A stretch of 64,000 nt of DNA, counting the filler, from Basidiobolus ranarum (taxonomy: Eukaryota): NCBI GenBank assembly GCA_040143965.1. It is 15 parts of 15 records of this genome, joined end to end, with 100 filler letters (N's around TTAATTAATTAA, not from the genome) between each part and the next. Parts side by side here need not be neighbours in the genome. Positions count along the whole stretch, not along the records: positions 47,151 to 51,328 come from JASJQH010008961.1; 14 more parts are not named here. One strand, given 5' to 3'. The notes below the pieces were generated by a model. That model saw nothing but the letters and a program-made list of their open reading frames with translations. It did no database searches and was not told the origin of the DNA. This document shows positions 49,176-50,628 of this stretch, piece after piece. Every line of letters begins with the position of its first letter. Within the stretch, counting starts at the first letter, position 1. The translations under genes and the position numbers were made by a program.

Positions 49176-49562
49176 TCAACTACTGAAAGAATCTACAACA
49201 TGGACTATTGATGATCGGAGGCAATCACGTGGGGAAATGCTTCGTTTCCTAGTGTGACCAGAGAACCGCCTTCCACATAGGTCATGCAGATCTCGTTTGT
49301 CACTCCTGGTGGATGGTTGTTCATGTACTGTCCGCTCCTTTATTTTTATAGGAGTCGTCGTCTCAAAGCCAGTGTTAGATGTCTCGATTTGAACAACTGC
49401 AGAGATTTCTTCACGTTTAGTATGACCGCAGAACCATCTACCGCACAAGTCATGGAGATCCCTTTTATCTCCTGTCACAGATTGGAGATACTGATTTGTA
49501 GGTAGACTTTGCACTGTCACAGTAAGAACAGTAGATGCTGCAAAGATGTTGATGAATTTCAT
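49176..49562 (-). CDS. Secreted Kex2-type repeat peptide precursor, copy 1 (128 aa): core DLHDLCGRWFCGHT at 49419-49460 and variant DLHDLCGRRFSGHT at 49251-49292
   Basis: Signal peptide ending near VQS-LP, DKR before each core, KR or RKR after. TATAAATA at 49620-49627. Confidence 0.85.
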   Translation of the reverse strand: MKFINIFAASTVLTVTVQSLPTNQYLQSVTGDKRDLHDLCGRWFCGHTKREEISAVVQIETSNTGFETTTPIKIKERTVHEQPSTRSDKRDLHDLCGRRFSGHTRKRSISPRDCLRSSIVHVVDSFSS

Positions 49563-49678
49563 GATTATAAATAAAAAGATACACAGTGCTGATTGAAAAT
49601 TATCGTTCTGGCGCCTAGCTATTTATATGATTTAACGGTCATATTTCAGGTAGAATGCATATCATCGGGTAATTGTGA

Positions 49679-49704
49679 TTCTCAGTCGCTTTATTCTTAG
49701 AATA
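49679..49704. promoter_or_regulatory. 26-bp bipartite element TTCTCA(G/C)T-n5-(G/T)ATTC(C/T)TAGAATA, also at 49911-49936 and 50735-50760
   Basis: Three copies with the same 5-nt spacer length. The proximal copies lie 117 and 107 bp upstream of the two precursor ATGs. Confidence 0.65.
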
Positions 49705-49850
49705 TTAAGCTTTACAGATCAATGTAGATGGCTCCTTGGGTAAATATCTTGATGGTGTCAAGGGATATCTCGGAAAATAAGGCTTTGACAGGCTAGTTGG
49801 CTTATCAAGCATTTCTCAGAACCAATACAGTGAGACAGTGAAATCCTGGA

Positions 49851-49921
49851 TTCTCAGTTGTTGCGTTCTCAGTTGTTGCGTTCTCAGTTGTTGCGTTCTC
49901 AGTTGTTGCGTTCTCAGTTGT
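49851..49921 (+). repeat. Perfect 15-bp tandem repeat TTCTCAGTTGTTGCG, 4.7 copies
   Basis: Units start at 49851, 49866, 49881 and 49896, with a partial unit at 49911. Confidence 0.95.
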
Positions 49922-50256
49922 GGGATTCCTAGAATATCATTTGGTACAAATCGTCCTTTTTAATAGCGCAATTTTAGAATATTGATTCTCGTTCAATATC
50001 ACGATCAATCTATCCAGATATAGATTTGAGTTTAATATGATATTCCCAGCTTAGTAGATACGCCAAATGCCAATCAATTATATTAATACCAGATAGTTTA
50101 TTAACTGTTAGTCGAAAGCTAAGAAAGGGTGGGTATTCAAAATCGTAGATTTATTGACAAAAAGGTAAGAGTAAACTGACTCCTGGACAGTGAAGTAATT
50201 AAATAGTATAAGGAGTTAAACTAGAGCAAAACTCTAGCGGCTTTATGGCATGATGT

Positions 50257-50628
50257 TCAACTGCTAATATTTTGAGCAATTTCCTCCATAAAAATTTTAA
50301 GATAGTTGCGAAGAATGATGCTTCTTTTTCTTGTATGTCCACAAAACCATCTGCCACAAAGGTCATGGAGATCTCGCTTGTTGCTATATGATGATTGTTC
50401 AGGCACTGTTTACTCCTCACCTTTAGTAGAATGCTTGGTGGATGATGATTCACTTGACTCTATTGAAGATTCATTGTCACGTTTGGTGTGACCACAGAAC
50501 CACCTGCCACACAGATCGTGTAGATCTCTTTTGTCTACTGCTAATTCTTCGGTCCCTTGACCCATAGGCAGGCCGTGAGTAGCAAGGGATAGAACAGTGG
50601 AGGCAATGACTAAAGTGGCGAATTTCAT
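50257..50628 (-). CDS. Secreted Kex2-type repeat peptide precursor, copy 2: cores at 50485-50526 and 50332-50373, with an in-frame TAA at 50410-50412 between them
   Basis: ATG 50628 puts the first core at residue 35, exactly as in copy 1. The frame continues past TAA as TVPEQSSYSNKR-DLHDLCGRWFCGHT-RKR plus 21 aa to TGA 50257, the same tail length as copy 1. Confidence 0.8.

Follow-up and report, generated by a model that had tools for sequence, protein, structure and literature searches.

A tandem pair of predicted secretory precursors for a two-cysteine 14-residue peptide in Basidiobolus ranarum, probable members of a genus-specific multigene family

The DNA analysed here is a 64,000-nucleotide stretch from the fungus Basidiobolus ranarum (assembly GCA_040143965.1), hereafter the window, in which two small genes are predicted to encode secreted precursors of a peptide of 14 residues (the core). 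The window consists of 15 pieces, each of about 4.2 kb, which are joined by N44-TTAATTAATTAA-N44 spacers (e.g., at 4195–4294 and 47051–47150), and adjacency of two pieces in the window does not mean adjacency in the genome. Both precursor genes lie on the piece at positions 47151–51328, which comes from JASJQH010008961.1. An earlier sequence-only reading had described two adjacent, co-oriented genes on a short contig, and this layout is borne out: two open reading frames (ORFs) stand head to tail on the minus strand within 49176–50628, on a piece of about 4.2 kb. Besides the two precursors, the ORF listing of this piece contains no ORF longer than 89 residues, and no core-like motif other than those of the two precursor genes occurs elsewhere in the 64-kb window. 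All parts of the two genes given below are on the minus strand.

Gene 1 (49176–49562) is an intact single-exon coding sequence of 128 residues followed by a TGA stop, and it encodes a precursor with two cores. The order of its parts is a hydrophobic N-terminus, a 13-residue pro-region, DKR, the core DLHDLCGRWFCGHT, KR, a spacer, DKR, core 2, RKR and a 21-residue tail. The spacer comprises 38 residues, which are mostly Ser, Thr and acidic, and is followed by KR ahead of core 2. Core 1 (49419–49460), preceded by DKR and followed by KR, is intact. Core 2 (49251–49292), however, is degenerate and reads DLHDLCGRRFSGHT, with a W-to-R replacement plus a C-to-S replacement of the second Cys, both of which hit columns at least 90% conserved across the family described below. 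Together, the two 14-residue cores make up 22% of the length of the 128-residue protein.

The N-terminus of gene 1 resembles a signal peptide over residues 1–19 (49506–49562) in its hydrophobicity, its predicted helix and its conserved junction. The Kyte–Doolittle mean is 1.88 over residues 3–17, an AlphaFold2 (AF2) model places a helix at residues 3–18, and the junction, (S/G)-LP, is conserved, with Q18, L20 and P21 nearly invariant in an alignment of 20 sequences. Cleavage is probable between VQS and the conserved LP. The AF2 model of the whole precursor, computed from the same 20-sequence alignment, reached a mean predicted local distance difference test score (pLDDT) of 48.7 and a predicted template modelling score (pTM) of 0.18 and shows no compact fold; its helices, of low confidence throughout, are confined to the signal peptide, the cores and the tail. 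The alignment is shallow, and the model is taken only as a weak sign of disorder. As such, the picture would fit a disposable polyprotein precursor.

Gene 2 begins with an ATG at 50628 and, as assembled (50410–50628), encodes 72 residues, which comprise the signal peptide, the pro-region, DKR, core 1, KR and a Ser-rich spacer. Its core 1 (50485–50526) is intact, KR-flanked and identical to DLHDLCGRWFCGHT. After 72 codons the frame is closed by an in-frame TAA at 50410–50412, and the 72-residue truncated product is the protein on record for the contig. In the same frame past the TAA (50257–50409) follow the end of the spacer, NKR, a second core (50332–50373) that again reads DLHDLCGRWFCGHT, RKR, a 21-residue tail and a TGA stop at 50257–50259, all of it colinear with the annotated B. 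ranarum protein K7432_012428, which has a Q at the position of the TAA. The sequence-only reading had assigned the full two-core architecture to each gene; this stands for gene 1, whereas core 2, RKR and the tail of gene 2 fall beyond the stop. That reading mentioned neither the stop nor the damage to both second cores. Thus, in this genome, the only intact core is the first core of each gene. The identity between gene 2 and K7432_012428 is 53 of 72 residues (74%) before the TAA and 39 of 50 (78%) after it. This equal conservation on either side suggests that the TAA is either very recent or an error of the fragmented assembly.

Two other readings of this TAA were tried and rejected. An aquaporin-like gene at 13641–14645 (plus strand; 334 residues, Pfam PF00230), whose best named matches are proteins of B. 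meristosporus (76–81%) and B. ranarum, is colinear with its B. meristosporus homolog and ends in TAA. This shows that TAA does end translation in this genome, and an alternative genetic code in which it is read through was rejected. A mini-intron of 15 nt with GT..AG borders, recognised by eye across the TAA, was rejected since K7432_012428 is colinear there with a Q; moreover, 15 nt is far below the lengths of fungal introns.

Three of the four cores encoded by the pair (49419–49460, 50485–50526 and 50332–50373) are identical in protein, the fourth being DLHDLCGRRFSGHT. Between the first cores of gene 1 and gene 2, 10 of the 14 codons differ, by 10 nt in all and with no amino-acid change. Over the segment that comprises KR, core 1 and KR, a Nei–Gojobori count finds no nonsynonymous difference at 43.5 sites and 11 synonymous differences at 10.5 sites, i.e., synonymous change is saturated. 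In the signal peptide, pro-region, spacer and tail, by contrast, the proportion of nonsynonymous differences (pN) between the two genes ranges from 0.33 to 0.53. Gene conversion, considered as the cause of the core identity, is rejected on the codon differences, which argue for selection on the peptide instead. The earlier claims that three cores are identical in protein, that the first cores differ by synonymous changes only and that the core is under strong purifying selection are therefore upheld, the last by a pN of 0 against a saturated synonymous proportion.

The 14-mer has a computed average mass of 1659.8 when reduced, and 2 Da less if disulfide-bonded. It is acidic, begins with D-L-H-D straight after KR and contains two His, two Cys and two Asp. 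Its Cys residues stand at core positions 6 and 11 and would enclose a putative six-residue ring, C-G-R-W-F-C. The computed net charge at pH 7 is about −1, and a cationic antimicrobial peptide was judged unlikely on this account.

Among 5.8 billion proteins, a word-indexed search gave 31 candidates, 21 of them at E up to 1. Two of the 21 are the window's own products (128 and 72 residues), and the other 19 are B. ranarum proteins annotated as 'hypothetical proteins', all of which carry two cores. Among the resulting 38 full cores, 28 are identical to DLHDLCGRWFCGHT and 10 differ from it by 1–3 residues. For many of these paralogs the locus tags run consecutively along a shared short contig (013232–013236, 012427–012432, 000096–097 and 016715–717), suggesting that they form tandem arrays. 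In the 20-member alignment, whose mean column identity is 49%, most positions of the core (C, G, W, F, C, G, H and T) are invariant. The same is true of K33, R34, R50, K89 and R90, and conservation is at least 90% at K49, K106 and R107; dibasic pairs of the Kex2 type (KR, RR or KK) thus bound the cores in the 20 sequences. Two members of a divergent B. ranarum sub-clade, K7432_012431 and K7432_014235, have Gly in place of the ring Arg and a longer tail, which carries at its C-terminus a partial third core that ends at the second Cys and is not preceded by a dibasic site.

When 1.84 billion cluster representatives were searched exhaustively with an HMMER profile, seven proteins reached E 0.001 or less, each of them either the window's own or from Basidiobolus, and no member was found outside this genus. 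In B. meristosporus the precursor takes a single-core form that reads DKR-DLHDFCGGWFCGHV-KR. Four B. meristosporus proteins with DKR-DLHDFCGGWFCGH(V/P) appear, from their sequences, to be tandem single-core units, part of them fused by the gene caller. In two models, ORX98274 and ORX98273, both the signal-peptide-like stretch and the pro-region occur a second time. These two look like pairs of tandem single-core genes that were merged by annotation. The sequence-only reading had named loss of the core in relatives as a point that would count against it; the 19 paralogs of B. ranarum retain the core, and B. meristosporus has variants of it. These two species, which supply the best matches, agree with the origin claimed there from a fungus of zygomycete grade.

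A sister family extends the pattern to a different peptide and comprises K7432_009182 and K7432_000260 of B. ranarum and K493DRAFT_89725 of B. meristosporus. One of the B. ranarum proteins carries three cores of the form FWNMR(Y/F)YCGG(W/F)xCxHx. Used as a query, this three-core protein retrieved two more, one per species, each of which ends in (K/R)R-FWNMRYYCGGWVC.H. The sister family shares KR or RR before the peptide and a C-G-G-W-x-C-x-H ring as in the main family, and it contains degenerate internal copies. What is constant across the genus is (H/R)-x2-C-G-x-W-hydrophobic-C-x-H after a dibasic site. At the ring Arg, the sister family and every B. meristosporus core have Gly instead; at the first core His, the sister family and one B. 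ranarum core have Arg.

In a maximum-likelihood tree, for which the TAA of gene 2 was written as X, gene 1 groups with K7432_000096, and K7432_012428 is the partner of gene 2. Both pairings have a support of 99/95, and they lie in different sub-clades, indicating that the duplication is older than the split from the K7432 lineage. The core is identical on all four branches. Gene 1 is 82% identical to K7432_000096, and the lineage in the window differs at the protein level from the annotated genomes of both B. ranarum and B. meristosporus. The terminal branches of the window genes are about five times as long as those of their B. ranarum orthologs (0.21 vs. 0.04 and 0.34 vs. 0.067). Besides relaxed selection, which is taken up below, a drift to single-core precursors or assembly errors are other possible causes of the damaged second cores and of the long branches.

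A bipartite motif, TTCTARGAAT-N7-STGAGAA, recurs upstream of the two genes. Its three matches in 64 kb, where 0.01 would be expected, all lie upstream of the precursor pair: a proximal one of gene 1 at 49679–49702 (minus strand), 117–140 nt upstream of the ATG, a distal one of gene 1 at 49911–49934 (minus strand), and one of gene 2 at 50735–50758 (minus strand), 107–130 nt upstream of its ATG. The distal copy adjoins a perfect tandem array at 49851–49921 in the gene 1 upstream region, made of 4.7 copies of the 15-nt unit TTCTCAGTTGTTGCG, which repeats the 3′ half of the motif. This distribution suggests a candidate cis-regulatory or transcription-factor site and common control of both genes. 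Closer to the starts, putative TATA-like boxes can be recognised at 49620–49627 (TATAAATA, minus strand, 58–65 nt upstream of the gene 1 ATG) and at 50678–50684 (TATAAAG, minus strand, 50–56 nt upstream of the gene 2 ATG).

On the same piece, a 254-bp unit occurs in two tandem copies of 76% identity at 47246–47747, which is non-coding by the ORF listing. On other pieces of the window, minus-strand frames at 6346–6966 and 18002–18553 resemble by eye the reverse-transcriptase and integrase parts of a copia-type retrotransposon.

Taken as a whole, the locus is best explained if the two precursor genes, in tandem, belong to a multigene family that is specific to Basidiobolus and encodes small secretory pro-proteins, an explanation to which we assign a probability of roughly 65%. 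The processing that would go with it, namely kexin-type cuts that release a disulfide-ringed 14-mer, is judged likely from the invariant features of the sequences. The predicted signal peptide would direct the precursor into the endoplasmic reticulum (ER), and C6 and C11 of each core would form a disulfide and thereby close the six-residue ring. A kexin-type (Kex2-like) protease would then cut after the invariant KR on both flanks of the core, a carboxypeptidase would remove the trailing C-terminal K/R, and the free 14-mer would be secreted. The product under selection would thus be the peptide, while pro-region, spacers and the greater part of the tail would be disposable.

As to the role of this peptide, a core that hardly varies among old paralogs and between two species suggests a single binding partner that is itself fixed and conserved. 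Our first choice, which is tentative, is that the 14-mer may act outside the cell as a ligand by which the fungus signals to itself, i.e., a mating, density or developmental cue. The further proposal that the 14-mer, together with its B. meristosporus and 'FWNMRYY...' cousins, would constitute the first peptide pheromone or autocrine hormone from a zygomycete-grade (Zoopagomycota) fungus is doubtful, and a pheromone or hormone role of the 14-mer is offered here as a possible hypothesis.

Several points weigh against this explanation of the pair. There are one (B. meristosporus) or two cores per protein, below the three-repeat criterion for Kex2-processed repeat proteins (KEPs), and at least 19 gene copies for one peptide suggest bulk output, which is unusual for a low-dose pheromone. 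The model gives no function to the motif that is conserved in the tail, past the last RKR. In a protein atlas, where values below 0.9 are leads only, the top-scoring entries were an ascomycete cluster without a name (0.88) and the cluster of MF-alpha precursors, to which the similarity of 0.83 is under the tool's meaningful level. Furthermore, the damaged second cores of both genes, together with the long branches, could reflect relaxed selection at the locus.

The last point leads to an explanation in which the local copies contribute little, gene 2 being a fresh pseudogene or truncated and gene 1 half-dead. The in-frame TAA of gene 2, the two replacements at conserved columns in core 2 of gene 1 and the terminal branches of 0.21 and 0.34 would all follow from such decay. 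However, the first cores and their KR flanks are perfect in both genes and differ by synonymous change only, the shared promoter motif is kept, and a truncated gene 2 would still yield one core, as do the single-core genes of B. meristosporus. With identity past the TAA no lower than before it, the stop is itself either very recent or an assembly error, and we hold local decay to be rather improbable. The same flanks bear on the idea that the H-x2-C-x4-C-x-H motif chelates Zn, Cu or Ni, either as the peptide or as two zinc-knuckle-like sites in the uncut protein, as an uncut protein leaves the invariant KR unexplained. Some likeness to metal sites does exist: Pfam RING/zinc families match through C-x4-C-x-H (e.g., zf-RING_13 at E 3e-4 and 21.3 bits, with a cut-off of 25), the best match in the PDB is a C2H2 zinc finger (E 0.061), and the peptide is acidic with two His, two Cys and two Asp. 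Nevertheless, all zinc-related Pfam matches are under the curated cut-offs, the exchange of the first His with Arg suits a charge or hydrogen-bond role rather than a metal ligand, and Cys pairs in ER transit normally oxidise, so that metal binding is very improbable.

Two further explanations accept the same kind of precursor but assign a different fate to the core. A small disulfide ring with Trp and Phe is a common shape of animal receptor ligands, and the peptide might, after the same processing, be an outward ligand or inhibitor that acts on a vertebrate or insect host or on gut microbes; the at least 19 paralogs with their 38 cores suggest a high output that would suit this. Basidiobolus is, moreover, described as an associate of the amphibian and reptile gut and an opportunistic pathogen (PMC9391592, PMC10079182). 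However, the core is nearly invariant, whereas arms-race molecules usually diversify, and a net charge of about −1 is not typical of cationic membrane-active antimicrobials. No likeness to solved peptides or proteins was found in the PDB (best E 0.061), and the Gly that replaces the ring Arg in the B. meristosporus cores and the sister family means that a basic-aromatic pharmacophore is not kept; this lack of conservation within the genus weakens, on the sequences at hand, any pharmacophore built on a basic-aromatic triad. An outward role is therefore unlikely in our estimate. Alternatively, the core could be the substrate of a pathway for ribosomally synthesised peptides with post-translational modifications (RiPPs), tailored before or after the kexin cut (Trp/Cys cross-links etc.) by enzymes encoded elsewhere. 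Its invariant Trp, Cys and Gly would suit an enzyme-recognised substrate, and a survey of 1,461 strains states that 22% of KEPs lie near DUF3328 genes required for cyclisation (PMC7329392). On the other hand, ring closure by two Cys four residues apart needs no enzyme, and a tailoring gene is absent from the 4.2-kb contig, although this contig is too short for the absence to weigh much; we regard a RiPP origin as having a low probability.

If the signalling role is true, a surface receptor would sense the 14-mer, which would govern either mating or transitions between a saprotrophic and a gut stage; in a bolder version, a fungal ligand would act on a receptor of the vertebrate host. How members of the Zoopagomycota mate and signal between cells is almost unexplored, and the 14-mer is a concrete, synthesisable candidate molecule. 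A review describes the mating genetics of Zoopagomycota as not well understood (PMC10386755). The peptide is conserved across a genus of amphibian and reptile gut symbionts and occasional human pathogens, and its gene family is unusually amplified. If the 14-mer were merely another KEP-type product, the gain would be a newly annotated family and a genus marker. The upstream motif could serve to find co-regulated genes in the full genome, and precursors with one or two cores would mark a blind spot of KEP surveys, in which similar families of other fungi may be hidden.

Searches for described relatives of the family gave the following picture. Four proteins were scanned against Pfam: the gene 1 protein matched no family, and three relatives gave sub-threshold matches only. 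A profile search of the PDB returned seven matches at E up to 10 (best 0.061), none of them meaningful. The core and ring strings (CGRWFC, CGGWFC, GRWFCGH, GGWFCGH and the full core) were not found in a full-text literature search. A match to a characterised family, which the sequence-only reading had listed as a finding that would overturn it, thus did not turn up in Pfam, in the PDB or in full text by core strings. Among the matches listed for Basidiobolus and pheromone, the sole paper on fungal secreted peptides was Umemura 2020 (PMC7329392), and a word search of Basidiobolus genome papers found no mention of RiPP or pheromone.

The closest comparison is with the KEPs. According to the survey texts, KR-flanked repeats after a signal peptide are the pattern of fungal Kex2 substrates (PMC6339444, PMC7329392), and the dibasic flanks that are invariant in the family alignment agree with the Kex2-type architecture claimed from the sequence at the outset. 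Like the precursor pair, for which a signal peptide is predicted, KEPs have a signal peptide followed by short, KR-bounded repeated cores and are predicted substrates of Golgi kexin. As given in their selection rules, the surveys of Le Marquer et al. 2019 (PMC6339444) and Umemura 2020 (PMC7329392) demand at least three repeats, and the former also asks that repeats make up at least 15% of the protein length. With 22%, gene 1 exceeds this share. However, the 19 B. ranarum paralogs and the window genes have two cores (core 2 of gene 2 lying past the TAA) and the B. meristosporus units one, i.e., fewer than three repeats, which implies that the family would be skipped by both surveys. Another difference is that copy number is raised here by gene duplication (at least 19 copies in B. 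ranarum) rather than by intragenic repeats. In Umemura's account, B. meristosporus has more KEPs than any other strain (43, with many duplicates), and a Basidiobolus-only type, S-3, has seven members (PMC7329392). The three-core sister family may be linked to S-3.

Alpha-type (MF-alpha) pheromone precursors are secreted pro-proteins with KR-flanked identical peptides of 10–14 residues, a plan that is also predicted for the Basidiobolus precursors. As summarised by Le Marquer et al., two-Cys alpha pheromones occur in Sordariomycetes, Leotiomycetes and some Dothideomycetes, some alpha peptides carry two conserved Cys plus a Trp, and some alpha precursors have fewer than three repeats (PMC6339444). 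In contrast to these, the Basidiobolus precursors have no Ste13 X-Ala/X-Pro spacer following KR, and the Cys spacing, the peptide sequence and the phylum (Zoopagomycota) differ; none of the four proteins scanned matched Pfam MF_alpha or MF_alpha_N, even at E up to 10. Ustiloxin-type (dikaritin) RiPP precursors, as outlined by Umemura, have a signal peptide, which is predicted for the pair as well, and Kex2-bounded repeated cores like those of the pair (PMC7329392). In dikaritin precursors the repeats are many and the cores very short, and neighbouring DUF3328/UstYa genes are required, whereas the ring of the Basidiobolus core can close by a plain disulfide. The ORF listing of the 4.2-kb contig at 47151–51328 gives no DUF3328/UstYa or other tailoring gene, in line with what the sequence-only reading had said; no ORF other than the precursors is longer than 89 residues there, on a contig too short for this to weigh much.

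A parallel from another animal-associated fungus is Ece1/candidalysin of Candida albicans, which is described as a secreted polyprotein cut at KR by Kex2 into short peptides (PMC5784256). The Ece1 peptides, however, are non-identical, and the one that is active is a longer helix that lacks Cys and damages membranes, whereas in Basidiobolus one short, acidic Cys-ring peptide is repeated. Precursors of the urotensin II/oxytocin type also resemble the pair, in their dibasic processing and in a six-residue disulfide ring with aromatic residues, both of which are predicted for the pair. The differences are that no sequence relationship to this type was found in Pfam or the PDB, that the ring Arg is not conserved in Basidiobolus and that, unlike in animal peptide-hormone precursors, there is no Gly for C-terminal amidation. 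Judged by its sequences, the Basidiobolus family is thus a genus-restricted addition to the known class of dibasic-processed fungal peptide precursors.

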